Positions 1,441 through 62,889 of a stretch of DNA of 64,000 nt are shown here, one piece after another. Where the stretch lies: contig DASYLL010000458.1 of the NCBI GenBank assembly GCA_036009605.1, positions 8,829-72,828 of the forward strand, written 5' to 3'. The notes below the pieces were generated by a model. That model worked only from the letters and a program-made list of their open reading frames with translations. It searched no databases and had not been told where the DNA came from. Every line of letters begins with the position of its first letter. Position 1 is the stretch's first letter. Source of the DNA: Thermoanaerobaculia bacterium (GTDB lineage Bacteria > Acidobacteriota > Thermoanaerobaculia > Gp7-AA8). The position numbers and the translations under genes were made by a program.

Positions 1441-1524
1441 CGTTGTCAGTTCTCGGTTGTCCGTTGTCTGCGGCTTTGTGTGGCCTCGCAGAGAGGCACT
1501 GACAACTGACAACCGAGAACAAAC
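1441..1524. repeat. Palindromic repeat family A copy 1 (arms TTGTCAGTTCTCGGTTGTC... / ...GACAACCGAGAACTGACAA)
   Basis: Inverted repeat with about 28 bp arms made of TTGTCNG-like heptamers around a roughly 30 bp loop. It lies between the convergent 456..1430 gene and icd. The same element recurs at about 9141, 37791, 53146 and 62801. Confidence 0.75.
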
Positions 1525-1546
1525 ATTTAGCCGCGCTGGCGCGCGG

Positions 1547-2779
1547 CTAAATGTTTTCTACGATGTACTTCGCGAACTCGCTGGTCTTGACCTTCGTTGC
1601 GCCTTCCATCTGACGCTCGAGGTCGTACGTGACTTTCTTCTGCTGAATCGTTTTCGCCATGCCGTTCTCGATGGCTTCCGCGGCTTCGTTCCAGTTCATG
1701 TGACGCAGCATCATTACGCCGCTGAGGATCAATGATCCCGGGTTGATGACGTCGAGGCCCGCGTACTTTGGCGCGGTGCCGTGCGTCGCTTCGAAAATCG
1801 CCACTTCGTCGGATTCATTCGAGCCCGGAGCGATGCCGAGGCCGCCGACCTGCGCGGCGAGGGCGTCGGAGATGTAGTCGCCGTTGAGGTTCGTGGTTGC
1901 GATGACCGAGTACTCCTCGGGGCGCAGCAGAACCTGCTGGAACATCGAGTCGGCGATGCGGTCTTTGATCACGATCTTGCCTTCCGGCGCCTTGCCCGAA
2001 ACCTCGGACTCAGGAATCGTCACGTCGCCGAACTCGGACTTCGCGAGCTGGTAGCCCCAGTCCTTGAACGCGCCTTCGGTGAACTTCATGATGTTGCCTT
2101 TGTGCACGAGCGTGACGGAGTTGCGATTCGTGGCGATGGCGTACTCGGTCGCCTTGCGCACCAGGCGCTTCGAGCCGAACTCCGACATCGGCTTGATGCC
2201 GATCGCCGAGTTTTCGCGGATCTTCGTTGAGCGCCGCTCCATCGAGTTGAGAAACTCGATGACCTGATTCGCGAGATCGGATCCGGCCGGCCATTCGATG
2301 CCCGCGTACACGTCTTCCGTGTTCTCGCGGAAGATCGTCATGTTCACTTTCTGCGGTTCTTTGACCGGCGAAGGCACGCCGTCGAAGTAACGCACCGGAC
2401 GCACGCACGCGTAGAGGTCGAGCACCTGACGCAGCGTGACGTTCAGCGAGCGGATGCCGCCGCCGACCGGCGTCGCCAGCGGGCCTTTGATCGACACGCG
2501 ATAGTGCGCGAGATGGTCGAGCGTTTCCTGCGGCAGGTACTCGCCGAAGTTCTGAAACGCCTTCTCGCCGGCGAACACCTCGTGCCAGTAGATCTTGCGA
2601 TTCCCGCCGTAGATCTTCTCGACGGCGCCGTCGATCGCGTACTGCGTCGCGCGCCAGATGTCGGGACCCGTACCGTCGCCTTCGATGTACGGGATGATCG
2701 GGTCATCGGGAACGACGAGCCGGTTGTTCTCGTAGCCGATGCGCGTGCCGGTGGTCGGGTGGGAGATGCGGTCTGCCAT
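1547..2779 (-). CDS. icd: Isocitrate dehydrogenase, NADP-dependent
   Basis: 411 aa from [11 protein letters not shown]..., with the [27 protein letters not shown] motif characteristic of prokaryotic Icd. The ORF-track N-terminal extension is trimmed to the first plausible Met. Confidence 0.9.
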
Positions 2780-2829
2780 GGGCGCGCACTGTAGCGAAAA
2801 GTGGGCGGCCGGGAAAGAGCCTGACGAGG

Positions 2830-2951
2830 GAGTCTCAGAGTCGCAAAGTCTCAGAGTCTCAGAGGGCTTCGCTTCTTGTCGCCTTTGTGCGAGACGCACG
2901 CCGCACGCCGCCTTTCCTCTGAGACTCTGCGACTGTGAGACTCTGAGACTC
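2830..2951. repeat. Palindromic repeat family B copy 1: large hairpin of tandem GAGTCTCAGAG 11-mers
   Basis: Left arm GAGTCTCAGAGTCGCAAAGTCTCAGAGTCTCAGAG, right arm CTCTGAGACTCTGCGACTGTGAGACTCTGAGACTC, about 55 nt loop. It overlaps the 3' end of nfo. Confidence 0.75.
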
Positions 2952-3821
2952 ATTCCCGGCGATGAGCCCCCGCAGAACCGCCAGGTTTCGCTGATCAGAA
3001 ACGGTCTCAATCGTCTTCGGCGTCTCCAGCACTTTCGGGATGCGCGTGAAGCGCGCGTCGTTGAGCAGGAAGCGAAACGGTTCGAGTCCGAGCTCGCCCT
3101 GGCCGATGTGCTCGTGGCGATCGACGCGTGATCCGAGCGGCTTCTTCGAATCATTGAGATGAAACGCGCCCACGTTCTCGATGCCGACGTGTTGTTCGAT
3201 CTCATCGATCGCGCGCTCGTAGCCATCACGCGTGCGCAGGTCGTACCCGGCGGCGAAAACGTGGCAGGTGTCGACGCAGATGCCGAGGCGGCGCGGGTCG
3301 CTGACGCGGGCGATCATTTGTCCCAATTCTTCGAACGTGCAGCCGACGCAGGAGCCCTGTCCTGCCGATGTTTCGAGCAACGTGACGACGCGATGATTCG
3401 GAATCGCGGCGTGGATCGTGTCGAACGAGCGCGCGATCTGATCGATGGCCGCATTCGAGCCCAGGCCCATGTGCGCGCCGGGGTGCAGGACGACGGCGTG
3501 GATGCCGAGGCGCTCAGCGCGGTCGAGCTCGTCGATGAGCGCGGCGATGGACTTGCGGTGGAACTCCGGGTTCGTCGTCGCCAGATTGATGAGATACGAC
3601 GTGTGCGTGAGCAGCGGCTGCACGGTGCGCTTCGCGTTGAACGTCGCGCAGTCCTCATCCGTCAGCTCTTTGCCCTTCCACTGGTTCCCGTTCTTCGCGA
3701 ACAACGCCGCCGCGGACGCATCGATCGCGGCGGCGCGATCGAAGATCGTCGAGAGGCCGCCCTGGGTCGAGATGTGTGCGCCAAGGAGGTCACCGGGTGC
3801 ATCGGGGAAGGCGAACCTCAT
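2859..3821 (-). CDS. nfo: Endonuclease IV (AP endonuclease, deoxyribonuclease IV)
   Basis: From [23 protein letters not shown]... with the conserved HxxYLINL, LHPGAH and HLNDSK metal-binding blocks of Nfo. The last ~30 codons ([14 protein letters not shown]...) are encoded by repeat B1, so the true C-terminus is uncertain. Confidence 0.8.
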
Positions 3822-4816
3822 TGCAGCCTGAAATTCACCGTCACCGTGTAATAGACGTCGATCGGCTCGCCGCGATACGTCGCGGGGCGGAATCTCCATC
3901 GACTCACCGCGCGACGTGCTTCGTCGCCGAGTCCGTACGGCAGGTCTTTGATGATCTCGAGATTGTCGATCGTGCCATCGCGTCTCACGATGCCGCGAAT
4001 CACGACCGGCCCCTGTACGCCCGCTCGACGCGCCGCCGGCGGGTATCGCGGAATCGCGCGATCGAGCTCCTCGGGTTGCGTGCCGCCCGGAGGTACCGCG
4101 CTGTAAACACCGGTGGTGCGTTCGACGGACTCCGGTTGCGGCTCCGGAGTTGGCTCGACCGGCGGCGGTTCCGTGGTCGTTGCCGTGTCTGCGATCGGCG
4201 GCGCCGCCGCGGTCTCGGTCACGTTCGTCGTCGACGGCACTTCCAGCTGATGCGTGCCGGACGAGCTGATGTCGATCGAGTCGACGTCGGCGTACGCGAC
4301 ACCTTTCCCCTGCGCGACCGCATAGAAGTCGTGATCGCGCGTGAACACGGTCACGTCGGCACCCTTCGCGAGAGTGCCGACGAGCGGATAGAAAATCCCC
4401 GGACCGGCGTAGAGGCTCACGCGCTCCGCGACTTCGCCCTTCAACGACGGCAGCGCGCGGATCGCTTCGAATCGTTTGATGCGACGTTGCTGCTCGGACG
4501 TGCGCTCGAGGTTCGCGCGCTCCGCCCATCCCGACAGTTCTTCCGACGTTTGCACACGCACCCACGCGCCGCGATCTTCGAGCATGGTCACACGCTCGCC
4601 GCTGGTCGCCGTGGCGACGACCGGTGCACGCGCGTTCGGCTCCGTGCGCACGCGGATGCGCACCGGCAGCACCGTCAGTGTCTCAGTGATCTGATCGGGC
4701 GCGCGCTCACTCGTGTCCGTGCGCAGCACGATCAACGCGAGCAGCACGAAGAAGATCACCGCCAGCGCGATGACCACGAGCAGACCGCGGCTGTGTCGGG
4801 TTTGGGGATCGGCCAT
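3818..4816 (-). CDS. TonB C-terminal domain protein with two bacterial SH3-like domains and an N-terminal TM anchor
   Basis: N-terminal TM segment LLVVIALAVIFFVLLALIVL, two SH3b-like segments, a Pro/Thr-rich linker and a TonB_C-like end (GVQGPVVIRGIVRRDGTIDNLEIIKD...). It overlaps nfo by 4 bp. Confidence 0.65.
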   Translation of the reverse strand: MADPQTRHSRGLLVVIALAVIFFVLLALIVLRTDTSERAPDQITETLTVLPVRIRVRTEPNARAPVVATATSGERVTMLEDRGAWVRVQTSEELSGWAERANLERTSEQQRRIKRFEAIRALPSLKGEVAERVSLYAGPGIFYPLVGTLAKGADVTVFTRDHDFYAVAQGKGVAYADVDSIDISSSGTHQLEVPSTTNVTETAAAPPIADTATTTEPPPVEPTPEPQPESVERTTGVYSAVPPGGTQPEELDRAIPRYPPAARRAGVQGPVVIRGIVRRDGTIDNLEIIKDLPYGLGDEARRAVSRWRFRPATYRGEPIDVYYTVTVNFRLQ

Positions 4817-5764
<948 letters not shown>

Positions 5765-6496
5765 TCAGATGGCGCCTTCTTCCTTCAACTTGATGAGGTG
5801 CGCGGTGATTTGAATCTCCGCGGCGCCGCGCAGGCGCTCATCGAGATCGGGATAGATGATCGCGCGCATTTCCTCCGCGGTTTCCGCGCCATTCGCGAAC
5901 GCGTCGAGGATCTGCCGTTCGCGCTCGAGACGATGCGCGATGTACTGCTCGATGAGCGGCATCGCGTCGTCGCGCACGGGACCGTGCGCGGGATAGATGC
6001 GGCGCGGATTCAACGAGCGCAGCGTTTCGAGCGAGCGGAAGTAGTCACCCATGTGGCCGTCGGGCGGGAAGATCGCGGTCGTGCCGTAGCCGAGGATCGT
6101 GTCGCCGGTGAAGAGGTCTCCGTCGGCGGTGAAGTAGCAGACGTGCTCGTTCGTGTGGCCCGGTGTCGCGATAACGTCGATGCGTGTGTCGTCGATCATC
6201 AACGTTTCGCCGCCGGCGACGCGGCGATCGACGTCCGAGTCATCGAGCACGTTACGCGGCGCGATGATCTCAGCGCCGGTCGCTTCTTTCAGAGGAATGG
6301 CCGCGGGTGCGTGATCGCCGTGGCGATGCGTGATGAGGATCGTGCGCAGGTTCGGCATCGCCGCGCACAACGCTTCGACATGCGATTCGATGAGCGGACC
6401 GGGATCGAGGATCGCGGTCTCGCCGATGAGGTACGTCTGCGTTCCGGTCAGCGTGAACGGACCGGGATTCGGTGCGGTGATCGTGCGAATGTTCAT
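5765..6496 (-). CDS. MBL-fold metallo-hydrolase
   Basis: HRHGDH metal-binding motif with downstream His/Asp ligands; 243 aa. Confidence 0.8.
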   Translation of the reverse strand: MNIRTITAPNPGPFTLTGTQTYLIGETAILDPGPLIESHVEALCAAMPNLRTILITHRHGDHAPAAIPLKEATGAEIIAPRNVLDDSDVDRRVAGGETLMIDDTRIDVIATPGHTNEHVCYFTADGDLFTGDTILGYGTTAIFPPDGHMGDYFRSLETLRSLNPRRIYPAHGPVRDDAMPLIEQYIAHRLERERQILDAFANGAETAEEMRAIIYPDLDERLRGAAEIQITAHLIKLKEEGAI

Positions 6497-7170
6497 CGGA
6501 GCGTCGGCTTTCCGTTCACGAGAACCGGCTCGACGGCTTCGATGATTGCGTCCCGTCGCGAGTCGAGCAGCTCTGCCGCGTTTGCGAATCCGATGAGCGC
6601 TTCGAGACTACGCAACGTGGGAAAGACCATCTGCATCTCGCGCGCGGCGTGTTTCTGCAACGCCGTTGTCGGATGAAGCCATGCTACGTCGACGACCTCG
6701 TTCTGTTCCGCGGTAGCGACGGCGTTGCGCGAGACGATCGCGAGAAAGAAATACGTGTCGAAGCGTTTCGGAATGCCGACGGGTGTGATCCAGCGCGAGG
6801 TCCAGACGAGTTGTGTGAGGTCGATCGGTGCTTCATTCGCGAGCTCGTTGAATCGGATGTTGCCCGCGAGCAGCTCGCGTCGCTTGCGCTCCGCGTCTTC
6901 GAGCGGCGCACCGAGCCAGACGCCGGTTTCCTCGAACGTTTCGCGCACGGCGGTGACGCGCATCGTGTCGAGCAGCGAACCGTCGCCGAGTTGCGCGTCG
7001 CTCCCTTCCGCGATGCCGCCGGGGAACACCCACGCGTTCGGCACGAACGAGCTCTTCTCGTGGCGCCGCAGCATCAGCACTTCGAACGGATCGTCGCGCA
7101 GCACGATCAGACTCGCAGCCGGAAGCGGCGTCACGGCATCCATCAACACTTCCCCTGCCATCCCACCCAC
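6493..7170 (-). CDS. NUDIX hydrolase (CoA pyrophosphatase-like)
   Basis: NUDIX box GG...E...RETFEETGV is present. The start is uncertain, with candidate Met codons at 7170, 7161 or about 7143. Confidence 0.65.
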   Translation of the reverse strand: MGGMAGEVLMDAVTPLPAASLIVLRDDPFEVLMLRRHEKSSFVPNAWVFPGGIAEGSDAQLGDGSLLDTMRVTAVRETFEETGVWLGAPLEDAERKRRELLAGNIRFNELANEAPIDLTQLVWTSRWITPVGIPKRFDTYFFLAIVSRNAVATAEQNEVVDVAWLHPTTALQKHAAREMQMVFPTLRSLEALIGFANAAELLDSRRDAIIEAVEPVLVNGKPTLR

Positions 7171-7559: not shown

Positions 7560-8158
7560 CAGTAGACGAGACGCATGAGACGGAATGGTTTGTCGGCGCG
7601 CTCGGGGCGATACAGCGCGAAGATGCAGATGGGCGTGTCGGGTTTCGGAGGATCACCTTCACGAAGACGCAGATGGAAATCGATTTCTTCTCCCGCTTGG
7701 ACTTGTCCCGAACCGTAGAGAACCGACTCGACGCGCACGGGGACGCGTGTTTCCCCGAGGTCGATGCGACGCGCAGCTTTTGTTGCGCTCGTGACCGTCC
7801 CGCGAATCAGCAGACGCGACTCGGACAACGGAACGATCGACATGATGCGATATCCACCATCGTCTCGCGGTTCGAGTCCGATCTCGTATTGCTCGCCTGC
7901 GTAATCGCCACCGAAGGTCTTCGCGATGCTATGAACGCCGAGAGCGACGTGCGATCCGGGCGCGAACGGAAGCGTGCCTTTGCGGATCTCGTCGACGCGC
8001 GCATTGACGCCGAGGCGATTGACGTCATCGATACCGATGGTCGGACGATCCTCCGAGTGTGTGGATTGTTCGAGCGTCGCCACCATCACGTGCGAGCCTT
8101 TCGACTCGAGAGAAATCCCGAACGTGCACAGGGCGGCGAGGAGAAGCGACAGACTCAT
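7559..8158 (-). CDS. Secreted hypothetical protein sitting between moaD and moaE
   Basis: Signal peptide MSLSLLLAALCTFGISLES. The start is trimmed to the Met at 8156-8158, which overlaps the moaD stop by 4 bp. I recognise no family. Confidence 0.5.
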   Translation of the reverse strand: MSLSLLLAALCTFGISLESKGSHVMVATLEQSTHSEDRPTIGIDDVNRLGVNARVDEIRKGTLPFAPGSHVALGVHSIAKTFGGDYAGEQYEIGLEPRDDGGYRIMSIVPLSESRLLIRGTVTSATKAARRIDLGETRVPVRVESVLYGSGQVQAGEEIDFHLRLREGDPPKPDTPICIFALYRPERADKPFRLMRLVY

Positions 8159-8630: not shown

Positions 8631-9091
8631 CGCTCCCCTAAAACTCCGCGCGGCAGAGAGCGAGCGACGGCAGAAAACGCCAGCTTTCTCATCATGACGG
8701 CGGTCAGAATTGCAACCGCAAAGCCGGATGTGGAAAAAGTTTCCTCGAAAAAAAGCGGGTCCGCTCATGCGCTTTTTTTCACAAGCGAGATCCCTATCTC
8801 GCTTGATGTCTGATACTTCGGCGGTTGCGCCTGCCACCGATCCATCGATTTCGGTGTTATTTCGAAGAGAAATCGAAAGTTGGCTTCGATTTAGCAGAAA
8901 GCCAGATCACGATGAAACGGGTTTCGACAGAAATAACGAAACCTCACTTGCGCGGGTCTCGCCTACCTCACCTGTGCACAGTGGCTGCTGCGGGCTCCCT
9001 CCTTGACTATTGGACCGATTTTGGACGATTACTCACTAAGCTTCTTTGAACCTACCAACATGGCCGCAGCGGTCCTAGCGATGTACCACAA

Positions 9092-9122
9092 CGGAGCCGA
9101 AAGGCTCCGTTAGTGCTTTTAT
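9092..9122 (+). terminator. Intrinsic terminator-like hairpin (CGGAGCC-GAAA-GGCTCCG followed by a T-rich tract)
   Basis: Perfect 7 bp GC stem with a GAAA tetraloop followed by TTAGTGCTTTTAT. It closes the 8640-9120 lower-GC non-coding region. Confidence 0.45.
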
Positions 9123-9140: not shown

Positions 9141-9207
9141 CGTTGTCAGTTCTCGGTTGTCGGTTGTCTGTGACGCAGCGCGAAGAGCCGCGGACAACCG
9201 ACAACTG
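9141..9207. repeat. Palindromic repeat family A copy 2 (right arm truncated)
   Basis: TTGTCAGTTCTCGGTTGTCGGTTGTCTG ... CGGACAACCGACAACTG, lying 40 bp upstream of the polA start. Confidence 0.7.
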
Positions 9208-11927: not shown

Positions 11928-11945
11928 GCCGTCTAAGAGAGCGCA

Positions 11946-12053
11946 CCCCTCATCCGCCTTTGGCACCTTCTCCCCTCTGGGAGGGGAGAAGGCCGAGAGT
12001 TGACAGGCCTTCGCCCCGCGTGAGCGGGGAGAAGGTGCCGAAGGCCGATGAGT
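11946..12053. repeat. Palindromic repeat family C copy 1 (nested palindrome around CTTCTCCCCTC..GAGGGGAGAAGG)
   Basis: CCCCTCATCCGCCTTTGGCACCTTCTCCCCTCTGGGAGGGGAGAAGGCCGAGAG plus an inverted second half. A half-copy recurs at 27853. Confidence 0.7.
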
Positions 12054-12862
12054 GGTCTCTCGTTCGCAAAAGTCTGCTCCTGCTGATCGCGATATCCCTC
12101 GCGTGCAAGCCCACTCCTTCCCCCTCGACGACGAAGAAAGCCGCCGCCGGGCCGAACGTGCGCGCGACGGTGATCACGATCCGCACGACCGAAGAACCGG
12201 AGAAGCGCGCCCTTACTCAGACGATCGCCATCGCCGGCGACAAAGCACGCGACACCAGCGAACGCGATGTCTGGCGTCTGTTCGATACGAAAGCGCGAAC
12301 GGTCACGTTCGTCGACGAGATCAATCGTACGGTTCGCACGGAGCCGCTGCAGAAACTGATCGACGAGCGTCGCGCAGAAAACTCGAAGACGCTACCGCCG
12401 CACTATCCGCGCGCGCGCCTGCTCCGCCCCGGAACAACGAAGACGATCCTCGGCGCCCGGGCCGAGTTGTTCGTGATCGAGAGCGGCGCGTACAAGCGCG
12501 AGCTGTGGATCGCGGAGCACCCTGCGATTCCGAGCGGGCTGTTTCCGATGATGCACGCGAGCGAGCCCGCGACGTTGCCGCTCGCACCGATCATGCGCGC
12601 GGTGGACGAAGTGCTCATCGCGGCACGCGGGTTTCCGCTGATCGATCACGCGGAGGTGCCGTTCGCGAAGAGCACGCTCGTGATCGATCGCGTCGTCGTC
12701 GAAGTCGGGCCGAAGGATGTGCCGGCGTCGCTGTTCGAAGTGCCGACTTACTCCAGGACCGCGACGCCCCAGTTGTCCGGATCGAACGTGTACTCGCGAT
12801 CCGTGAAGCCACGTGCGAGCTGGGCTTCCGCACAATCATCCTCGACACTGCCGGGCCAGTAG
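12035..12862 (+). CDS. Hypothetical lipoprotein
   Basis: Start proposed at the in-frame GTG at 12035 inside repeat C1, giving MPKADEWSLVRKSLLLLIAISLAC with lipobox LAC. The ORF-track start at 11906 would overlap polA and read through the repeat. The low-complexity C-terminus overlaps the convergent gene. Confidence 0.45.
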   Translation: MPKADEWSLVRKSLLLLIAISLACKPTPSPSTTKKAAAGPNVRATVITIRTTEEPEKRALTQTIAIAGDKARDTSERDVWRLFDTKARTVTFVDEINRTVRTEPLQKLIDERRAENSKTLPPHYPRARLLRPGTTKTILGARAELFVIESGAYKRELWIAEHPAIPSGLFPMMHASEPATLPLAPIMRAVDEVLIAARGFPLIDHAEVPFAKSTLVIDRVVVEVGPKDVPASLFEVPTYSRTATPQLSGSNVYSRSVKPRASWASAQSSSTLPGQ

Positions 12863-15331: not shown

Positions 15332-15416
15332 GAGAGTCTTAGAGGTTTAGAGTCGTAGAGTCTTAGAGGAGAAGCCTGTCCAACCGACCCTCTACGACTC
15401 TAAGACTCTAAGGCTC
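15332..15416. repeat. Palindromic repeat family B copy 2 (tandem TAGAGTC/GAGTCTTAGAG units)
   Basis: GAGAGTCTTAGAGGTTTAGAGTCGTAGAGTCTTAGAGG ... CCTCTACGACTCTAAGACTCTAAGGCTC, filling the divergent selB/hydrolase intergenic region. It is related to copy B1. Confidence 0.7.
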
Positions 15417-18491: not shown

Positions 18492-19481
18492 GTGTTCCTG
18501 AGTTATGATCCGCGCCGCTTGACACGCCCGAATCCCCTCCCTGTCGACTCCGTTCTCGAGCTCATCGGCAACACACCGATGGTCCGTCTCCGCAAGATCG
18601 GCGGCGGTGATGACGCCGAGATCTTCGTGAAGATGGAGCTCCTCAATCCCGGCTTCTCCGTCAAAGACCGCATCGGCATCGGCATGATCGAACGCGCCGA
18701 GCGCGATGGTCATCTGAAGCCCGGCGGAACGATCATCGAGCCGACTGCGGGCAACACCGGCGTCGGACTCGCGCTCGCCGGCGTGCAGAAGGGCTATCGC
18801 GTCATTCTCTGCGTCCCCGAGAATTTCTCGAAAGAGAAACGCGAAGTGATGAAGGCCCTCGGCGGCGAAGTGATCCTCACGCCGAAAGACGGCGGGATGA
18901 AAGCCGCGATCGCACTCGCGGAAAAACTCGCAACGGAGATCGAAGGCGCGTACGTTCCGCAGCAGTTCGCGAATCCGTACAACACCGAATCGCACTACGA
19001 GACCACCGGCGCCGAAATCTGGGAACAGATGGAAGGCCGCGTCGATGGCTGGGTTGCGGGCGCGGGCACCGGCGGCACGTTCACGGGCGTCGCCAAGTAC
19101 CTCCGCGAACGGAACCCCGACGTGCAGTGTTTCATCGTCGAGCCGCAGGGCTCGATTCTGAAAGGCGGCGAAGCGGGACCGCACGAAGTGGAAGGCATCG
19201 GCGCGTCGTCGTTCATCCCGCCCGTGCTCGACATGAGCCTCGCCACGGACGTCATCAAAGTCGATGACGATCCCGCCTTCGACATGGTCGCGCGACTCGC
19301 CGTCGAAGAAGGAATCCTCGGCGCATCGTCCGCCGGTGCAAACGTGACCGCTGCGCTCGAAGTGGCAAAACGACTCGGCCGCGGCAAACGCGTCGTGACG
19401 CTGATCCCCGACGCGAGTGAGCGCTATATGTCGAAGGGCATCTACGAGCGCTGGCGGAAGCAGGAAGATGACGCGAATTGA
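18492..19481 (+). CDS. cysK: Cysteine synthase (O-acetylserine sulfhydrylase)
   Basis: N-terminal LIGNTPMVRL motif; 329 aa. The exact start is uncertain. Confidence 0.85.
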   Translation: MFLSYDPRRLTRPNPLPVDSVLELIGNTPMVRLRKIGGGDDAEIFVKMELLNPGFSVKDRIGIGMIERAERDGHLKPGGTIIEPTAGNTGVGLALAGVQKGYRVILCVPENFSKEKREVMKALGGEVILTPKDGGMKAAIALAEKLATEIEGAYVPQQFANPYNTESHYETTGAEIWEQMEGRVDGWVAGAGTGGTFTGVAKYLRERNPDVQCFIVEPQGSILKGGEAGPHEVEGIGASSFIPPVLDMSLATDVIKVDDDPAFDMVARLAVEEGILGASSAGANVTAALEVAKRLGRGKRVVTLIPDASERYMSKGIYERWRKQEDDAN

Positions 19482-19564
19482 AAATTGAAGATTGAAAAAT
19501 CGCAGCGCCGGTCTCGCGAGACACGCTCCGATCTTTGCATTTTCAATTTTCAATTTTCAATTCC
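19476..19564 (+). terminator. AT-rich palindromic terminator/attenuator-like element (TTGAAAA x3 ... GGTCTCGCGAGAC ... TTTTCAA x3)
   Basis: A perfect 12 bp GC palindrome GTCTCGCGAGAC is flanked by inverted tandem heptamers. It begins inside the cysK stop codon and ends 20 bp before the next start. It is strikingly AT-rich for this genome. Confidence 0.5.
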
Positions 19565-24829: not shown

Positions 24830-24964
24830 TTCCCTCTTACTGGTGTTGGATTTTTAACGCGCTCATTCATTTCGCGTCTAACGACTACAACGATTGAAAT
24901 CGAATGAGGTTTGGGGAAATCGGCAACGAAAGCGTGAACGCCTTGTGTCAGGTGTTGTTCACAG

Positions 24965-25059
24965 GTTTGGAGTGCGGCAGCCGCAGCTGCCGCCTTTGTA
25001 TGCGACAGCGCTGCGCACGAACATACGAAAGCGGCAGCTGCGGCTACCGCACTCCAAAC
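24965..25059. repeat. Palindromic repeat family D copy 1 (GGAGTGCGGCAGCCGCAGCTGCCGC arms, nested inner palindrome)
   Basis: GTTTGGAGTGCGGCAGCCGCAGCTGCCGC ... GCGGCAGCTGCGGCTACCGCACTCCAAAC, immediately after the ppdK stop. Confidence 0.7.
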
Positions 25060-25064
25060 TGAAG

Positions 25065-27815: not shown

Positions 27816-27852
27816 GGCAGCGCGATTATCTTCCAAGTCGGATGGTGGACAA

Positions 27853-27906
27853 CCCCTCATCCGCCTTCGGCAGCTTCTCCCCTCACGAGGGGAGAAGGCC
27901 GAGAGG
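27853..27906. repeat. Palindromic repeat family C copy 2 (half element)
   Basis: CCCCTCATCCGCCTTCGGCAGCTTCTCCCCTCACGAGGGGAGAAGGCCGAGAG, lying between the ppdK start and the lipoprotein gene end. Confidence 0.7.
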
Positions 27907-36359: not shown

Positions 36360-37790
<1,431 letters not shown>

Positions 37791-37792
<2 letters not shown>

Positions 37793-37863
37793 GTTGTCGG
37801 TTCTCGGTTGTCCGTGACGTTTCGCCCGGGCCGTGAATCACAGACAACCGACAACTGATAACC
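37791..37863. repeat. Palindromic repeat family A copy 3, filling the sufB-sufC intergenic region
   Basis: GAGTTGTCGGTTCTCGGTTGTCCG ... CAGACAACCGACAACTGATAACC. It starts at the sufB stop codon and ends at the sufC RBS. Confidence 0.75.
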
Positions 37864-37874
37864 AGGAAAGACGC

Positions 37875-38627
37875 ATGTTAGAAATCACAGACCTCCACGC
37901 CGGCATAGACGGCAAGAAGATTCTCAATGGCCTCAACCTGCGTGTAAACGCGGGCGAAGTGCACGCGATCATGGGGCCGAACGGCTCCGGTAAATCGACA
38001 CTGGCGAATGTGCTGGCGGGTCGCCCGCGGTATGAAGTCACCGGCGGCACCGTGCTGTTCGAAGGCAAGGACCTGCTCGCGCTGCCGGCCGAAGAGCGTG
38101 CCCGCGAAGGCGTGTTCCTGGCGATGCAGTACCCGGTCGAAATCCCGGGTGTCAACAACATCTACTTCCTGAAGGCCGCGCTCAACGCGGTCAAGAAGCA
38201 TCGCGGAGAGGAAGAGCTCGACGCGATGGAGTTTCTGCAGCTCGCACGCGAGAAGATGAAGGTCGTCGAGCTCGACGAAGCGTTCATGAATCGCGGCGTG
38301 AATGAAGGCTTCTCCGGCGGCGAAAAGAAACGCAATGAGATCTTCCAGATGGCCGTGCTCGATCCGAAGCTGGCCGTCCTCGACGAGACCGATTCCGGCC
38401 TCGACATCGATGCGCTGCGCGTCGTCGCGAACGGCGTGAACACGCTGCGCAGCGAAGCGCATTCGGTCCTGGTCATCACGCACTACCAGCGCCTGCTCAA
38501 GTACCTCGTGCCCGACTACGTTCACGTGCTGGCCAACGGCCGCATCGTGAAGTCGGGTGGCAAGGAGCTCGCGGAAGAGCTCGAGCAGAAGGGGTACGAC
38601 TGGATCGAAGAAGAGGGGGCTGCGTGA
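37875..38627 (+). CDS. sufC: Fe-S cluster assembly ATPase SufC
   Basis: From MLEITDLHAGIDGKKIL..., with Walker A GPNGSGKST and ABC signature FSGGEKKR. Trimmed from the track ORF, which began inside the repeat. Confidence 0.95.
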   Translation: MLEITDLHAGIDGKKILNGLNLRVNAGEVHAIMGPNGSGKSTLANVLAGRPRYEVTGGTVLFEGKDLLALPAEERAREGVFLAMQYPVEIPGVNNIYFLKAALNAVKKHRGEEELDAMEFLQLAREKMKVVELDEAFMNRGVNEGFSGGEKKRNEIFQMAVLDPKLAVLDETDSGLDIDALRVVANGVNTLRSEAHSVLVITHYQRLLKYLVPDYVHVLANGRIVKSGGKELAEELEQKGYDWIEEEGAA

Positions 38628-49540: not shown

Positions 49541-49637
49541 GTTGCTGGTTGCTGGTTGCTGGTTCAAGGTACTTCGTCGCCAGAGCGTGACGCACTCGCG
49601 ACAAGGCACAACGAACCAGTAACCAGCAACCAGCAAC
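49541..49637. repeat. Palindrome of tandem GTTGCTG heptamers (GTTGCTGGTTGCTGGTTGCTGGTTC ... GAACCAGTAACCAGCAACCAGCAAC)
   Basis: 25 bp arms and a 47 bp loop, between the MlaD-like gene end and the ddl start. It is probably a terminator or processing hairpin. Confidence 0.6.
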
Positions 49638-53145: not shown

Positions 53146-53226
53146 CTTTGTCGGTTGTCAGTTTCGGTTGTATCGGCCGTGTCGCGAGAACCCACAGACA
53201 ACCGACAACCGACGCCTGACAACCGC
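53146..53226. repeat. Palindromic repeat family A copy 4
   Basis: CTTTGTCGGTTGTCAGTTTCGGTTGTA ... CAGACAACCGACAACCGACGCCTGACAACCG, in the divergent galU/BNR intergenic region. Confidence 0.7.
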
Positions 53227-56996: not shown

Positions 56997-57004
56997 GACG
57001 GAAC

Positions 57005-58723
57005 TTAATTTAGCATGACGCGCGTGAAGCCGGCCTCGCCCGAATACTGATCGAGCACGCCTACCGAAACGCGATCGCGACTGGCGTCGACTTCGAGGTT
57101 CACGGCGAATCCGATCGTCTTGCCCTTCACCTGCGCGATCGTGTCCTTCGACCAGCGGAACGATTGCTCCTGACGATTCACCTCGGAACCGACGCCGCCC
57201 GCATCGCCGAGGGAAACGAAGACTGCGAATGACGCGGCGTACTCGCCTTTGTCTTCGAGCAGCTCGAGGCTGTCCACCGGGATCCTGATCGTCATCGGAA
57301 TGGTTCGCTTCTCACCGTCGACGACCGCGGCGTCCATCGTCACGGAGATGTGGAGCGGATTGACCGGCTCGAGAACGTGATTGGCGATGACCTGATCGGA
57401 GACTTCCCAGTCGCGGCTGACCGCGCCGGACGAAAGCGTCGCGCGAGCGTTGAGGCCTTTGCGCACTTTGACCGCAATCTGCGATTTCGGATTCAGCGCG
57501 CCGGTCGAGCGATAGCCGACGGAGTAGTACGAGTCGAGATCGTTCATGATCTCGGTGAGGACCTGATCCGCGGGTCGGCCGATCATTGCCGCGCCGCCGG
57601 TGGCCGACGCGATGCGGTTGTAGCCGTCAAGCGCGCCCACCTGCGCCGCAAATTCCGAGGCGTAGTCCGCGCGGTGCTTCGACGCAGCGCCACCAACCTG
57701 CCGGTTTCCGAACTCGGGATTGACCGCGTAGATCGCGACCCCCTTCAGTTTTGCATTGGCGGCCACCACATCGAAGAACGGCGTGACGTCATACCCGGCG
57801 ATCTGGGTCAGCGTCGATGAAGTGCGTTGGTTTTTGAACCCGCGATGGTTGCTGAGCTCCGCCTGGTTTCGTGCGCTCTCGATCCTCTGAAAGACCGCGT
57901 CCGCCGGATTGAGCGGCATTCCGCCGCCGGCGAGGATGATGATCTTGCGGCCGCCCGGAACACCCGCAAACGCCGTGAGCGCGGCGTTGAGGGACGAGAG
58001 CGTCTGCTTCGTTTCGAACGCCGCGGTCGAAGCGTAGTTCCGCCCCGACGTGATGACCTCGTTGAAATCGACCGGCGGCAGGCTCCTGGTCATCCCGTTG
58101 CCGCTGCTGGTTGCGTTCCCACCGGTTTGCACCTGGTCGCCGGAACTGCCGCTGTTCGAGCCCTGCGGTGGTCCCATCGACTGGGCCGCCTGATCCGCGC
58201 CCTCGATGATCGCCTGGAGCGACTGCTCGAATCCGAGGAGCTCGGGATGCGGAAGGATCGCGTCCTTCTCAATCAGCGCCAGCGTCTTCAATACTTCTTC
58301 TTTATCCGCGGTCCACGCGAGTCGCTGCTTCACCGAGCGCGCGATCGTGGCGACGGCAATGCGATCCGAGGGACCGATCAGCATCCGCTCCAGCGTCCCT
58401 CGGGTCGCCTCGAACACCTTGCGTCGCGCGGAGAGGGCGATCGAACCGTTGTCGATGATCAGCAGAATGCGACGCGGCGCGGGCTGCACCGTCTCGACGG
58501 TTCCGCTCGTCGTACGACTGATCTCCGAGAGATTCGTCAGCTCCTGCGGTTTGCCATCGACGAGGATCTCGAAGTCGTTCTTCGTGAGGCCGGTGACGCG
58601 CTTGCCTTGTTTGTCGCTGACGACGACGTCGAGGTTCGTGACCTGCACATCGATGACTTCACTCTGCTGCGCGAACAGCGGGAACGCCAATACAGCCAAT
58701 GCCACTGCGACGATGCGTTTCAC
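57005..58723 (-). CDS. Secreted VWA-domain protein of the 'VWFA-related Acidobacterial domain' type
   Basis: Signal peptide MKRIVAVALAVLAFPLFAQ, a VWA-like core ILLIIDNGS.., and the overall architecture characteristic of Acidobacterial VWFA-related proteins; 572 aa. Confidence 0.75.
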   Translation of the reverse strand: MKRIVAVALAVLAFPLFAQQSEVIDVQVTNLDVVVSDKQGKRVTGLTKNDFEILVDGKPQELTNLSEISRTTSGTVETVQPAPRRILLIIDNGSIALSARRKVFEATRGTLERMLIGPSDRIAVATIARSVKQRLAWTADKEEVLKTLALIEKDAILPHPELLGFEQSLQAIIEGADQAAQSMGPPQGSNSGSSGDQVQTGGNATSSGNGMTRSLPPVDFNEVITSGRNYASTAAFETKQTLSSLNAALTAFAGVPGGRKIIILAGGGMPLNPADAVFQRIESARNQAELSNHRGFKNQRTSSTLTQIAGYDVTPFFDVVAANAKLKGVAIYAVNPEFGNRQVGGAASKHRADYASEFAAQVGALDGYNRIASATGGAAMIGRPADQVLTEIMNDLDSYYSVGYRSTGALNPKSQIAVKVRKGLNARATLSSGAVSRDWEVSDQVIANHVLEPVNPLHISVTMDAAVVDGEKRTIPMTIRIPVDSLELLEDKGEYAASFAVFVSLGDAGGVGSEVNRQEQSFRWSKDTIAQVKGKTIGFAVNLEVDASRDRVSVGVLDQYSGEAGFTRVMLN

Positions 58724-59463
58724 GAGGCCCCCTTGGTAAACCAGACTCCCGAGTCATCCACCGGTATCAAAGAAACGTTGAGCTTCCGTGCGACGAGAAA
58801 CTCGTCGACGGCGCGGCGACAGCCTTCCCAGTATCCGTAATCATCAATCACGACGAACCCGCCTGCGATGACGAGATCGTAAAGGTTTTCGAGGCAAACG
58901 CGAGTCGAGTCGTACCAGTCGCCATCGAGCCGAAGTACTGCAATTGGGCCTATTTCGTGACGTGCGGCCGGCAGGGTGTCCTGAAACCAGCCCTGGCGGA
59001 TGTGCACGCGTGCCGCGTCGACGCCGAGCTTTTCGAAGAACAGCCCCTTCACGACGTCGAGCGGGCCGACGCATTGTCCGATCGGTTCGAGCGCGCCGCT
59101 CGAGCGATCGCCCGAGTACTCGATCGCCATCGTGCCGTCTTCGACCGTCGGCTCCGGCAATCCCTCGAACGAATCGAACAGCCAGATCTGCCGCTCTACG
59201 GATCCGGCCATGGTCATCACCGCGGCCGAGCCACCTTTGAAGACGCCGCATTCGACGATTGCGCCCGGCAGCGACTTCGACTCCGCCAGCTTCACGACGT
59301 CATACGCGTTGATGAGTCGCTCGAAACCGACCATCGTGTACGGCTGCACGAGCTGCACGGCACGCACCTTCTCGCGATCGCCCCCGGCCGCGCGGCGGAT
59401 CGCAAACCCGCGCTGCAATGGATAAAGGAGATTCCAGTAGACCGCGCGCCAGAGCCGCCTCAA
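58720..59463 (-). CDS. TylF/MycF-family class I SAM-dependent O-methyltransferase
   Basis: TMVGFERLINAYDVV...GAIVECGVFKGGSAAVM...RLDGDWYDST motifs of macrocin-O-methyltransferase-like enzymes. The start is uncertain: ATG at 59334 or an upstream TTG near 59463. The track ORF extends further as Arg-rich noise. Confidence 0.65.
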   Translation of the reverse strand: MRRLWRAVYWNLLYPLQRGFAIRRAAGGDREKVRAVQLVQPYTMVGFERLINAYDVVKLAESKSLPGAIVECGVFKGGSAAVMTMAGSVERQIWLFDSFEGLPEPTVEDGTMAIEYSGDRSSGALEPIGQCVGPLDVVKGLFFEKLGVDAARVHIRQGWFQDTLPAARHEIGPIAVLRLDGDWYDSTRVCLENLYDLVIAGGFVVIDDYGYWEGCRRAVDEFLVARKLNVSLIPVDDSGVWFTKGAS

Positions 59464-61736
59464 TGCAGCGCCGTCACGATCTCGGTGAAGGCAGGCTCGC
59501 CGCGCAGAGAATCGAGCCGGGGATCGACGGGAAGAAACACCATCCAGGGCGAGCGGTCTTCGCGCGCCGCCTGCAGCTGTTCGATCGCGGCGCGCGCATC
59601 GCCGAGTCCCGCGTGGATGACCGCGATGTCGTACGGCGAGACGTAGCGCGTGCGCGCCGTCGCGAGCAGTTCGGTGAGCAGCTCGCGCGAACGCTGCTCG
59701 TCGCCTGCGATCGCATATGTGTGCGCGAGCATGGTCGTGAGAATGGGAATGCGATCGACTTCGAATGCACGCGCGAACACATCGATCGCTTCGGGGTAAC
59801 GATGCTGTTGCCCGAGAGCCATGCCGAGCCAGCCATGCGCGGGGATGAAGTTCTCGTCGAGCTCGAGCGCCTTGCGAAAACGGCGGATCGCCGATTCGAA
59901 ATCGCGCGCGAAGTAAAACGGCCAGCCCGCGTGCACCGCGATGATCAGCGACAGCGGATCGAGATCCGCGGCCTTCGAGATCTGCTCGACTGCCTCGTCG
60001 AAACGTCCGCGTGCGGAGAGCAGCATCGCGTAGCCATCGTGCGCGTTCGCGTAGTTCGGATTGAGCTCGATCGCGCGGCGATAGGCTTCTTCCGCACCTT
60101 CCCAATCCCAGTCGAACCACCAGCGCACCGCGCCGAGGGATGCCCAGGCTTCGGCGAGACCGTCATCGATTTCGATCGCGCGCATCGCCGCGGCTTTTGC
60201 CTTCGGCATCGTGTCGTGCGGCGGCAGCGGGATGTTCGTAGCCATGGTGATGAAGCAGTCGGCCATGCCCGCGTACGCCATCGCGAACGAAGGATCGGAC
60301 TCGATCGCCTCGCGAAAAAACTGAACGCCGCGCCGCAGGCTCTCTTCTGTGCGCTTGTTCCAGTGATAGCGGCCCTTGAGATACAGCTGATACGCCTCGC
60401 TGTTCTCCGTCGTCTTTCTGCGGAGCTTCTTTTTCTCCGCGCCGGTGAGCTTCGGCCGCAGCTTGTCGGCGATCTCGCTCGACATCTCTTCCTGCAGCGT
60501 CAGCAGGTCGGCGAGCTGGCGGTTGTACGTCTCGCCCCACAGTTGCGCGCCATCGAGCGAGTCCACCAGCTCGACGCTGATCTGCAGCCTCTCACCGACA
60601 TTCTTCACGACACCGGTGAGAACCGCGCGTACGCGCAGCTCGCGGCCGACGCCTTGCGGATCGACGTCGCGGCCTTTGTAGCGGAACACCGTGCTGCGCG
60701 CCATGACCTTCAGCTTCGGCAACTGCGAGAGCTTGTTGATGATGCCTTCGGTGATGCCGTCGCTGAGGTACTCGGTGTTCGGATCGTTCGAATGATTGAC
60801 GAGTGGCAGCACCGCGATCGAGTCGATCGCTTTCGACGTGCGCCGTTTCGTGATCGTGCGGATCAGACTGTCGCTCACCATCGTCGCGCTGCTGCCGATG
60901 GAGCGCAGCGTGAGCGCGAGATCGCGCGCGGATTGAAAACGGGTCGACGGACTCTTCTCGACGCAGCCTTCGATGATGCGCTGAAACTCGGACGGCACGA
61001 CCGCCCCGAGCATGTCGCGCGGGAGATCGTCTTTGAGGATTGCCGCGATCGTCGCCGCGCCCGACTCGCGATGGAACGGCTTCTTCAGCGTCACCATCTC
61101 GAAGAGGATGCAGCCGAGGGAGAAGAGATCGGCGCTCGGATCGACGGCTTCGCCACGGAGCTGCTCGGGCGACATATAGCCGAGCGTGCCGATCACCGTG
61201 CCGGGCTGCGTCTGGAACCACTTCGTCGTCGGGATGTTGCCTTCGTCGCGATCGGAAAGAACGGGATCCGTTTGCGCGAGACCGAAGTCGAGAATCTTCA
61301 CGCGCCCCGTTTCGGTGAGGAAGATGTTCTCCGGCTTGAGATCGCGATGCACGATCGATTTCGCATGGGCCGCCGCGAGTCCTTCCGCGACTTCCGCGCC
61401 GATCTCCACGGCGCGTCGCCAGTTCATCGGCGCCTGCAGCGCATCGCGCAGAGTCTTGCCTTCGAGCAGCTCGGTGACGAGATAGAACGTCGAGTCCTCG
61501 CGTCCGACGTCATACACGGCGACGATGTTCGGATGCGAAAGCGCCGCGATTGCTCGCGCTTCGCGCTCGAGTCGGCCCGTGGCCTCCGCGTCCTGCAATG
61601 CGTCCTTCGCGAGAACCTTGATGGCGATGTCGCGCCCGAGGCGCGGATCGCGTCCGCGGTAGACCTGTCCCATTCCTCCTTCGCCGAGGAGAGAGAGGAC
61701 TTCGTAAGGACCGACTTTGGACCCGGCCGCGAACAT
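59460..61736 (-). CDS. Ser/Thr protein kinase with C-terminal TPR-repeat region
   Basis: Kinase motifs GEGGMGQVY, AIKVL, HRDLKPEN, DFG and GTLGYMSPE, followed by about 450 aa of TPR-like helical repeats; 758 aa. Confidence 0.85.
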   Translation of the reverse strand: MFAAGSKVGPYEVLSLLGEGGMGQVYRGRDPRLGRDIAIKVLAKDALQDAEATGRLEREARAIAALSHPNIVAVYDVGREDSTFYLVTELLEGKTLRDALQAPMNWRRAVEIGAEVAEGLAAAHAKSIVHRDLKPENIFLTETGRVKILDFGLAQTDPVLSDRDEGNIPTTKWFQTQPGTVIGTLGYMSPEQLRGEAVDPSADLFSLGCILFEMVTLKKPFHRESGAATIAAILKDDLPRDMLGAVVPSEFQRIIEGCVEKSPSTRFQSARDLALTLRSIGSSATMVSDSLIRTITKRRTSKAIDSIAVLPLVNHSNDPNTEYLSDGITEGIINKLSQLPKLKVMARSTVFRYKGRDVDPQGVGRELRVRAVLTGVVKNVGERLQISVELVDSLDGAQLWGETYNRQLADLLTLQEEMSSEIADKLRPKLTGAEKKKLRRKTTENSEAYQLYLKGRYHWNKRTEESLRRGVQFFREAIESDPSFAMAYAGMADCFITMATNIPLPPHDTMPKAKAAAMRAIEIDDGLAEAWASLGAVRWWFDWDWEGAEEAYRRAIELNPNYANAHDGYAMLLSARGRFDEAVEQISKAADLDPLSLIIAVHAGWPFYFARDFESAIRRFRKALELDENFIPAHGWLGMALGQQHRYPEAIDVFARAFEVDRIPILTTMLAHTYAIAGDEQRSRELLTELLATARTRYVSPYDIAVIHAGLGDARAAIEQLQAAREDRSPWMVFLPVDPRLDSLRGEPAFTEIVTALH

Positions 61737-61795
61737 GCAACCTCATTCTAGTGGCTGACTGGCGAGCAGCCATCGGACCCGAGTAACATTTCGCC

Positions 61796-62791
61796 ATGGT
61801 CCTGATCAACAAAGCGATCAACGAGGTCACGGTCAAGCTCGTGTACTACGGGCCCGGGTTGTGCGGGAAAACGACGAATCTCGAGAAGATCTACGCCAAT
61901 CCGAAGCTCGACAACAAAGGCAAGATGATCTCGATGTCGACGGAGACGGACCGCACGCTCTTCTTCGACTTCATGCCGATGGAGCTCGGCACGATCGCGG
62001 GCCAGAAGGTGCGCGTGCAGCTCTACACCGTGCCTGGTCAGGTCTTCTACGACGCGACGCGCAAGCTCGTGTTGCGCGGTGCGGATGGCGTGGTGTTCGT
62101 CGCCGATTCGCAGAGCGAGATGCGCGAGTCGAACCTCGACAGTCTCAACAATCTCAGGACCAATCTGCGTTTGAATCGCATCGATCCGACGAAGGTCGCG
62201 GTCGTCTATCAATTGAATAAACGCGATCTCCCGAACGTCGCATCCGTCGAAGAGATGACCGCCTACCTCGGCGCAACACCGGACTCCGTCGTCGAAGCCT
62301 CGGCGAAAGCAGGCGCCGGCGTGACCGCGACGTTGCGCGCCGCGGTCGCGAAGATTCTCGACAATCTGAAGAACAACGTCGACACGACGCTGTACGAAGA
62401 GCCCGCGCTCACCGCGCCGGACATGACACAGAAGTCAGGCGTCGCGCAGCATTCGGCAGGAACGCCGAAGTTGTCGATGCATTCGCCGGTCGCCACGACG
62501 CCTGCTCCAGCACCTGCGCCGGTGGTGGAAGTCGAGGCGGTCGTCGATGAAGATCCGTTCGATACCGGCGGGGTGGCGGTGCAGGTCGAGGAGGACGAAG
62601 ATCCGTTCGACGCGACGGCACATCACGTCGACTTCGAGGATCCGTTCGCGAGTCCCGCGGAAGTCGCTGCCGCACCGCCGCCAACGGATCTCGAAGAGTT
62701 GCTCGCGAATGCGAGCGCTCTCGTTTCATCGCTCGAGGTTGCACTCGAACGCGCGAGAGAGAACGAACGAAAACTGCGCGCACGGCTCTAG
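61796..62791 (+). CDS. MglA-like Ras-family small GTPase with ~135 aa acidic DPF-repeat C-terminal extension
   Basis: The first ~195 aa align nearly residue-for-residue with Myxococcus MglA (KLVYYGPGLCGKTTNL, STETDRTLFFDF, YTVPGQVFYDATRKL, NKRDLPN). This is followed by an Ala/Pro-rich linker, three EDPFD-type repeats and a short coiled-coil end. Confidence 0.8.
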   Translation: MVLINKAINEVTVKLVYYGPGLCGKTTNLEKIYANPKLDNKGKMISMSTETDRTLFFDFMPMELGTIAGQKVRVQLYTVPGQVFYDATRKLVLRGADGVVFVADSQSEMRESNLDSLNNLRTNLRLNRIDPTKVAVVYQLNKRDLPNVASVEEMTAYLGATPDSVVEASAKAGAGVTATLRAAVAKILDNLKNNVDTTLYEEPALTAPDMTQKSGVAQHSAGTPKLSMHSPVATTPAPAPAPVVEVEAVVDEDPFDTGGVAVQVEEDEDPFDATAHHVDFEDPFASPAEVAAAPPPTDLEELLANASALVSSLEVALERARENERKLRARL

Positions 62792-62800
62792 CTCGCCGCG

Positions 62801-62889
62801 CGTTGTCAGTTGTTGGTTCTCGGTTGTCTGCGACCTGGCCTGGCTTCGCAGTGACTCTTCAGACAACCGACAACCGAGAACTGACAACG
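62801..62889. repeat. Palindromic repeat family A copy 5 (most complete copy)
   Basis: CGTTGTCAGTTGTTGGTTCTCGGTTGTCTG ... CAGACAACCGACAACCGAGAACTGACAACG, starting 10 bp after the mglA-like stop. Confidence 0.75.

Follow-up and report, generated by a model that had tools for sequence, protein, structure and literature searches.

A 64,000-nt stretch of the genome of an uncultured Thermoanaerobaculia bacterium (Acidobacteriota; assembly GCA_036009605.1, contig DASYLL010000458.1, positions 8,829 to 72,828; hereafter the window) carries five copies of a short palindromic repeat, which we call family A. All copies share one design: a run of GTTGTCN heptamers (GTTCTCG is often the second unit), ~22-34 nt of other sequence and then an inverted run of NGACAAC heptamers, with a copy size of 64-87 bases in this genome. 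Family A consists of lineage-specific, short non-coding palindromic elements of soil Acidobacteriota metagenome-assembled genomes (MAGs) labelled Thermoanaerobaculia, and is part of a broader hairpin class in which each arm consists of roughly four 7- or 8-nt units in tandem. We favour, with moderate confidence, the reading that family A is a non-autonomous repeat with tandem-heptamer arms that has been moved as DNA in trans and is gained and lost at gene junctions, where its hairpin is tolerated; in this it would resemble REPINs (hairpin-forming doublets of repetitive extragenic palindromic (REP) sequences) or miniature inverted-repeat transposable elements (MITEs).

Anatomy and distribution of family A

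The five copies listed by a first-pass annotation of the window are all present in its sequence, each to within ~3 nt of the coordinates given there (Table 1). Genes were taken from Joint Genome Institute (JGI) calls on a metagenome contig that is 99.97-100% identical to window positions 1-44537, together with Pfam scans and the output of a codon log-odds model, which was trained on the JGI calls and separates genes from shadow open reading frames (ORFs). The codon-model calls reproduce the JGI calls and place all five copies between genes, in agreement with the annotation. Copy 3 fills the 82-nt gap between sufB and sufC as had been described: it spans from the sufB stop codon (TGA, 37790-37792) to the sufC ribosome-binding site AGGAAAG (37864-37870), which is all that the gap holds outside the element, and the sufC ATG is at 37875. 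The TDNRQPRTDN peptide that the annotation regarded as a spurious product of the repeats is the translated right arm of copy 5, ACAGACAACCGACAACCGAGAACTGACAAC, and the ORF listed from 62803 begins within this copy.

The arm sequences are enriched in the window and concentrated in the five copies. GGTTGTCNG occurs 15 times (1.7 occurrences are expected from shuffles), and a 19-nt pattern of the arm, searched with a tolerance of three mismatches, has 14 matches (0.16 expected), all within the five copies. A heptamer-phase scan of the window recovered every arm but the right arm of copy 4 and found no additional array of three or more units. Tandem Repeats Finder reported a period of 7, with 2.3-4.6 copies, for seven out of 10 arms (it did not list the left arm of copy 5 or the right ones of copies 2 and 3). 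When the whole window was searched, unfiltered, with a covariance model derived from 31 copies, the five copies scored 52-70 bits and a sibling element with a different unit (49541-49637) scored ~50 bits; an unrelated long palindrome (24972-25052) reached 40 bits, and all remaining matches were below 20 bits. No copy matches an Rfam 15 family at the gathering threshold, nor at E-values up to 5, a scan of the window for tRNA and tmRNA genes found none, and a blastn search of a plasmid database with copy 5 gave no match. Integron attC sites, dif, Chi and uptake sequences were considered and dropped, as their motifs do not fit.

Whichever strand is folded, every copy gives a single long hairpin (RNA folding energies of -31 to -55 kcal/mol; z-scores of -2.7 to -7.3), and the hairpin is also found with DNA parameters in copy 5 (-35 kcal/mol) and copy 3 (-17 kcal/mol). 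Folding each copy, as the annotation had advised, thus gave a strong hairpin in all five cases and on both strands. There is no T-run 3' of any of the five copies on either strand, so the copies are not canonical intrinsic terminators; the terminator role that had been suggested for them does not hold in this canonical form, and separate canonical terminator hairpins lie next to copies 1 and 2.

The family is not confined to the window. A scan for exact GTTGTCNGTTSTCGGTTGTC in genomes (one genome per species) gave at least 117 loci, with ~9 expected by chance according to our own estimate from the collection size. The matches listed include Acidobacteriota (many 'Thermoanaerobaculia' MAGs, Blastocatellia and Korobacteraceae) and, beyond this phylum, Bacteroidota, Lysobacterales, Chloroflexota, cyanobacteria, Poribacteria and others. 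Among these listed matches about half are hairpins with inverted heptamer arrays and the remainder have an array on one side only, in many cases in contact with a start or stop codon; in many of the loci outside the window GTTATCN units are intermixed with GTTGTCN. A more specific pattern, GTTCTCGGTTGTCNGTTGTCTG, was found in 51 metagenome contigs, apparently mostly from soil by their contig names. The dispersed family that the annotation had assumed from the window is present in more than 50 other contigs. In IMG/VR, 44 viral contigs carry the motif (~1-2 expected, again by our own estimate); hairpins account for 14 out of 50 motif clusters in these contigs, and some contigs have 3-5 copies. 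The IMG/VR contigs with the motif may include host flanks of prophages. High-GC viral contigs from this collection (L183/L188 and L220) have 3-5 GTTGTCN arrays or hairpins each, located in gene junctions.

The acidobacterial form is a discrete unit, mostly with four heptamers per arm (based on ~50 outside copies): an arm of four GTTGTCN or GTTCTCG units is followed by a core and then by the inverted array of four. The total length is exactly 78 or 84 nt in 23 out of ~45 acidobacterial-type copies, and between the last GTTGTC and the first GACAAC the span falls into two length classes (36 or 42 nt). The core has the consensus TG(Y)G-RNGTTY-CGCCCGGGCG-A.....-C(R)CAG and contains a GC-rich mini-palindrome, TCGC(CCGGGC)GA, that is seen either as TCGCCCGGGCGA or as TCGCGA; the short form is a 6-nt deletion of CCCGGG that leaves TCGCGA. 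A third core variant is common to copies 1 and 5 of the window. The loops had been described as variable, and the cores do diverge fast, but they are homologous, with a consensus and two fixed lengths that are found across genomes.

Gene junctions and conservation of the arms

Most of the acidobacterial-type elements for which both neighbouring genes were called lie between co-directional genes (36 out of 43); four have divergent and three have convergent flanks. The elements follow stop codons closely: among upstream genes within 60 nt, 33 out of 45 stop codons are at most 11 nt from the element, and several overlap its first base (as in TAG-GTTGTC). Only stop distances enter these statistics; the model-based start-codon distances are overestimates. 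Many right arms stop 1-20 nt short of an ATG, some without space for a Shine-Dalgarno sequence.

In a Bacteroidetes MAG (L033; 1290-1720, 2470-2556), the sufC-sufD junction is occupied by a GTTNTCN hairpin whose right arm has eight units; this (NGACAAC)8 array finishes 6 nt ahead of the sufD ATG. This is a single case within a suf operon, with ~0.17 such cases expected by chance among the 117 loci listed, and we do not use it as evidence. The same locus has a small ORF between sufB and sufC that is flanked by inverted AATTTGGAAATTTGAAAAT-type repeats.

The SufB of the window matches, at 100% identity, a protein that NCBI lists under 'MAG TPA: Thermoanaerobaculia bacterium'. We compared the window with contigs that encode SufB proteins 93-98% identical to the window SufB; at the fourfold sites of sufB, the divergence between these relatives and the window is 27-47%. 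The junction comparisons show turnover of palindromic elements and 7-nt slippage in their arms. At the sufB-sufC junction, both the window and L178 have family A, with identical right junctions, and L176/L177 have an A-like element; L179 (TAA cgaa ATG) and L172 (25 nt) have no element, and unrelated palindromes are found in L173/L174 (11440-11570, arms CTGAGCGAAGCGAAGAGTCA...) and L180 (11440-11580, arms CCCCGTCATCCTGAGCCG...). This junction looks like a hotspot of hairpin elements. At the mlaD-ddl junction, the window and L179 share an orthologous element with GTTGCTG arms, and the junction is empty in L178 (TAGATG) and L172. The genes glyQ and glyS overlap in the window; L172 has a (TCGGCAG)4...(CTGCCGA)4 hairpin there (7685-7781), and its glyQ frame reads through the entire hairpin (+25 codons). 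Copy 4 of the window lies 5' of the NTP-transferase gene, and the orthologous site in L179 has a different, GGGGAGAGGG-type palindrome instead. Insertions or deletions of a whole heptamer (7 nt) in the arms are seen between orthologous copies (L121 versus L137, and copy 3 versus its counterpart in L178). The sufB-sufC, mlaD-ddl and glyQ-glyS junctions, each filled in some genomes and empty in others, thus show the insertion polymorphism that is one of the marks of MITEs.

The annotation had advised a covariance analysis of the hairpin. In an alignment of 31 sequences, 87% of the cells are paired in the specified hairpin, and in this respect the hairpin is conserved; but there is no covariation beyond that of shuffled controls (496 out of 500 shuffles of the 3' partners pair equally well, and few pairs change on both sides), so that selection at the level of structure is neither confirmed nor refuted. 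At position 7 of the heptamer the two arms are mismatched in about one quarter to more than half of the copies, depending on the unit, and at position 4 of unit 2 (the C in GTTCTCG) they are mismatched in 22 out of 29 copies. Since each array keeps the heptamer consensus, the hairpin results from the presence of two arrays and not from compensatory evolution. An apparent covariation in TG(N)G...C(N)CA was dropped as evidence, as 15 out of 30 are unpaired on a formal count.

The arms of two orthologous pairs of copies are 7% and 16% diverged, compared with 35% and 27% at the fourfold sites of sufB; the cores of the two pairs are ~40% diverged. The arms change at a lower rate than synonymous sites, which suggests that they are kept after insertion by sequence-specific recognition or by slippage-driven homogenisation.

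Other palindromic elements in the window

Tandem Repeats Finder reported four further hairpins in the window with arms of tandem short units (the siblings in Table 1). Families with different units therefore share one architecture, in which about four units are followed by a core and then by about four units in inverted orientation.

Table 1. Positions, repeat units and gene contexts of the family A copies and of the sibling hairpins in the window
Element	Position	Units and core	Gene context	Covariance model (bits)
Family A, copy 1	1441-1524	Arms GTTGTCA GTTCTCG GTTGTCC GTTGTCT and inverted set	11 nt past DUF4097 stop (1428-1430); flanking genes convergent; adjoins separate terminator-like hairpin (1527-1557)	60.8
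Family A, copy 2	9141-9207	Four left and two right units; short-type core TGTGACGCAGCGCGAAGAGCCGCGG	~40 nt 5' of polA ATG (9246); downstream of terminator-like hairpin (9091-9115)	55.7
Family A, copy 3	37791-37863	3+3 units; long-type core with TCGCCCGGGC	sufB-sufC gap (see text)	58.6
Family A, copy 4	53146-53226	Degenerate; short-type core GTGTCGCGAGAACC	Between divergent genes: NTP_transferase (minus, start ~53107) and BNR/sortilin-like (plus, 53296)	51.8
Family A, copy 5	62801-62889	Best copy, 4+4 units	10 nt past stop of GTPase-like gene (62791); co-directional methyltransferase gene ~20-37 nt further on	70
Sibling	49541-49637	GTTGCTG, 3.4 per arm	mlaD-like stop (49644) to ddl start (49523), minus strand	49.7
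Sibling	19476-19562	AATTGAA x3.3 / ATTTTCA x3.4; core GTCTCGCGAGAC	PALP-domain / Cys/Met-metabolism gene junction, co-directional	
Sibling	2830-2951	Octamer GAGTCTCA, 4.4 per arm	Overlaps 3' end of called AP_endonuc_2 ORF	
Sibling	15333-15416	Octamers AGAGTCTT / CTCTAAGA, arms 4.5 and 3.4	Divergent selB start (15308) and hydrolase start (15417/15435)	

The core of the sibling between the PALP-domain and Cys/Met-metabolism genes, which has AT-rich arms, resembles the short core of family A, and its unit is one base off the TTTTGAA heptamers studied in Nostoc. The AP_endonuc_2 ORF (2859-3815, minus strand) enters the hairpin at its 3' end by ~90 nt, and its C-terminus may be encoded by the element or over-called. 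Two palindromes of other kinds are also present. A near-perfect palindrome of 95 nt (GGAGTGCGGCAGCCGCAGCTGCCGCC..., 24965-25059) lies 5 nt past the PPDK stop codon and has a half copy at 63736-63767; a permissive Rfam scan of the window gave only weak miRNA-like matches on this unrelated palindrome (24959-25062), which are spurious. A separate palindromic family, ACCCCTCATCCGCC...GGGGAGAAGG, is found 17 nt past the polA stop codon (11945-12056), with a half copy at 27852-27882; the GGGGAGAGGG-type palindrome at the copy 4 site of L179 is similar to it. The DUF4097 'toastrack' gene upstream of copy 1 contains a 54-nt tandem repeat with several diverged copies (816-1176), which presumably encodes a structural module that recurs in the protein.

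Origin of family A and its relation to known repeats

According to the reading we favour, family A spreads, or has spread, as DNA through a trans-acting enzyme whose target would be the heptamer arrays or the hairpin, in the manner of non-autonomous REPINs and MITEs, and phages are a possible carrier between lineages. Insertions would persist where the hairpin in the transcript does no harm. Where an element lies between two genes of an operon, the base of its hairpin would place the stop codon of the first gene next to the start region of the second, so that both cistrons could stay translatable. A long and near-perfect RNA duplex (-35 to -55 kcal/mol) with no U-tract would not be expected to terminate transcription; it would rather be a barrier to 3' exonucleases or a processing site of the RNase III type, and could alter how stable the sufB part of the suf transcript is relative to the sufC-D-S part, with a possible effect on the sufB:sufC ratio.

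Several observations weigh against this reading. No transposase or RAYT (REP-associated tyrosine transposase) domain was found in those window genes (not all of them) that were scanned or have precomputed Pfam annotations, and arrays located 0.3-5 kb apart in ~1.3 Mb of fetched loci enclose ordinary genes, with no transposase flanked by them. There is no target-site duplication: across 59 elements, matches between the flanking k-mers of 2-8 nt are no more frequent than in a control with swapped flanks. The likeness among the window copies is 58%, compared with 64% among copies from other metagenomes, and the nearest relative of each window copy lies outside the window; as the window copies are no more alike than outside copies, there is no sign of a recent burst. 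Given the divergence of the relatives at fourfold sites, the gains and losses are old, and some of them could be deletions or decay in place. The retention of the arms after insertion is not predicted for a purely selfish, inactive element. Hairpin stability on the sense strand is not biased (22 are more stable and 26 less stable), and the covariation signal does not exceed that of the shuffles, so that the effects at the RNA level proposed above are inferred only.

Repeats of a similar kind have been reported in other bacteria. In Geobacter metallireducens (Aklujkar et al. 2009, PMC2700814) there are 24 inverted pairs of four tandem octamers GTTGCTYN (class 1), 21 pairs of TCTCCGTS(Y) repeats (three 8-9-mers) and eight pairs in which the heptamer MTYCTGA is repeated five times; one of the pairs is located within an operon, between proB and proA, and the pairs were read as IHF/HU sites without experiments. 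Family A shares with them the inverted pairs of ~3-5 tandem units of 7-9 nt on opposite strands, the intergenic position and the multiple copies, and the GTTGCTYN unit is close to the GTTGCTG unit of the sibling at the mlaD-ddl junction. The Geobacter repeats, however, belong to another phylum, have an octamer in class 1 and variable spacing, and no conserved core was reported for them. Xanthomonas genomes (Rehm et al. 2015, PMC4692102) have ~185 GGGAATC arrays, mostly of four units (range 2-26), and 70-75 convergent pairs per genome that are capable of forming stem-loops; the arrays are on average 28 nt from the end of the upstream ORF, nearer to it than to the next ORF, and differ in length and sequence between related species. 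Intergenic heptamers, inverted arrays of four units, proximity to the upstream ORF end and variation between relatives are all features of family A too, but the Xanthomonas unit is G-rich and has been studied as a former of G-quadruplexes, which family A units cannot form. TAACTGA repeats (MacGregor 2015, PMC4679880) are found just 5' of starts in Beggiatoaceae, and also in cyanobacteria and Bacteroidetes, and S1, Csp and CsrA have been discussed as their binders. TAACTGA is GTTATCA on the other strand, and GTTGTCN and GTTCTCG of family A are in the same GTTNTCN frame. The TAACTGA and short tandemly repeated repetitive (STRR) sequences resemble family A in their intergenic head-to-tail 7-nt units, in indels of 7-nt steps, in having the C/A-rich strand towards nearby starts, and in the patchy and unexplained phyletic distribution of the unit. 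They differ in that Beggiatoa has 169 direct TAACTGA sets and one inverted set, of variable length and with no core (PMC4679880), whereas in family A two inverted arrays form a unit of fixed size, with a conserved core and a higher GC content. For a heptamer repeat of Nostoc, a preprint describes modest expression effects upon deletion (10.1101/2022.06.06.494920).

The resemblance to TAACTGA repeats bears on a rather unlikely alternative, in which family A is a host cis-regulatory module acting as RNA: the C/A-rich (NGACAAC)n arrays before starts and the G/U-rich (GUUGUCN)n arrays would bind a single-strand protein with a 7-nt footprint (a cold-shock-domain or S1 protein), and the hairpin would couple, insulate or thermally gate translation of the neighbouring cistrons. 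The short distances of many right arms from the next ATG, in some cases with no Shine-Dalgarno sequence between them, are in line with such a module, as are the Bacteroidetes array 6 nt from the sufD ATG, the TAACTGA repeats just before Beggiatoaceae starts with Csp and S1 as proposed binders, the binding of one CspB protein per heptamer (PMC4679880), the conservation of orthologous arms relative to synonymous sites and the occurrence of the GTTNTCN unit in many phyla. But hairpin stability shows no strand bias relative to the direction of transcription; copies are found between convergent and divergent genes too; and the presence or absence of elements at the same junction in relatives, together with their replacement by unrelated palindromes, argues against an essential regulatory role. 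The mismatches at position 7 and at position 4 of unit 2, together with the lack of covariation, indicate that the arms are kept as sequence and not for their pairing, as would be expected if the arrays were paired double-stranded DNA sites for a putative global regulator or nucleoid protein, with one dimer per 7-8-bp unit, or for IHF/HU. Ribbon-helix-helix proteins bind tandem repeats of 7-8 bp in this way (omega of pSM19035 on heptads and MetJ on 8-bp metboxes). An arm of about four units also recurs across unit families and genera (PMC2700814, PMC4692102). We nevertheless consider this explanation unlikely, as most copies are in operon junctions or 3' of genes and not in promoters, with only four out of 43 between divergent genes, and as the core extends the palindrome to its apex, a feature relevant to a hairpin or cruciform and not to two independent arrays.

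The annotation had assigned the repeats to the REP/BIME (bacterial interspersed mosaic element) or MITE kind. The elements are indeed dispersed, intergenic, hairpin-forming and polymorphic in presence, but they have no self-folding arms, no GTAG and no target-site duplication; as they fail on REP anatomy and on the MITE duplication, we file them as members of neither group. Like REP, BIME and REPIN sequences, family A elements are short, occur at high copy number (five in 64 kb, and more than 50 other contigs), consist of two inverted units that make one long hairpin, are located between genes, within operons or 3' of genes just past the stops, and lack target-site duplications; an influence on mRNA stability is commonly ascribed to REP/BIME elements. 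Genuine membership in a REP/BIME (REPIN) family whose RAYT (TnpA-REP, of the Y1 HUH type) is encoded elsewhere in the genome would account for these features and for a population that appears old and vertically persisting. A REP arm, however, is an imperfect palindrome (~20-40 nt) with a GTAG-type 5' end. The family A arms are tandem heptamers without self-complementarity: four arms folded alone (both of copy 5 and the left ones of copies 1 and 2) gave 0 to -2.6 kcal/mol, no better than shuffles, and neither GTAG nor CTAC is found in any of the five window copies. No Y1 transposase is present among the scanned or annotated genes of the 64-kb window, and REP families are not built as sets of siblings that have different units and one architecture; a RAYT family therefore seems about as improbable as the DNA-site explanation. 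Less likely again is a classical MITE, i.e. a deletion derivative of an insertion sequence with a DDE transposase, the heptamer arrays being its terminal inverted repeats. Family A is short, non-coding, palindromic, dispersed and insertion-polymorphic, in which it resembles MITEs of the Correia/ERIC (enterobacterial repetitive intergenic consensus) type, and transposon ends commonly carry subterminal repeated binding motifs. MITEs of the Correia/ERIC type are co-transcribed with genes, and the hairpins of Correia transcripts are cut by RNase III. They have, however, terminal inverted repeats, target-site duplications and a conserved interior, and family A has internally repetitive arms and flanking 2-8 nt matches that do not exceed the control; in addition, no longer element with the same ends was found around a transposase in the ~1.3 Mb of fetched loci, and the window has no near-identical copies. 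Finally, the elements might have no common descent, the arrays having grown locally by replication slippage and the palindromes having arisen by template switching. Heptanucleotide repeats are cited as the most over-represented class of long simple sequence repeats in many bacteria, with polymerase slippage as the proposed cause (Mrazek 2007, as cited in PMC4679880), and 7-nt indels do occur between orthologous copies. Yet the unit order, the 4+4 size, the inner stem and the homologous core of two lengths are common to unrelated sites and metagenomes, and empty orthologous sites (TAGATG) hold no seed sequence; the shared core strongly disfavours an origin by slippage only, which we regard as very improbable.

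A broader form of the reading that we favour would unite the GTTNTCN hairpins and the siblings in one pan-bacterial, phage-borne class of mobile elements, moved by an enzyme that would read the heptamer arrays and inserted preferentially at stop-start junctions of genes in one transcript, and would include the TAACTGA/STRR, Xanthomonas and Geobacter repeats; we put this forward tentatively, as somewhat unlikely. The literature we searched holds no paper that describes the acidobacterial family A or gives a mechanism for the class, and family A adds to a kind of repeat that has been noticed several times and never explained. Family A sharpens the 35-year-old question of how heptanucleotide arrays are made and used, as it offers a fixed-size unit with a conserved core, and filled and empty junctions that can be compared base by base. 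In practical terms, the elements extend ORF calls (as in glyQ of L172 and the ORF from 62803), yield spurious peptides and can break metagenome assemblies. If the transcribed hairpins change the stability of mRNA segments, they would be a cheap and recurrent source of expression divergence in conserved operons such as suf, glyQS and mlaD-ddl.

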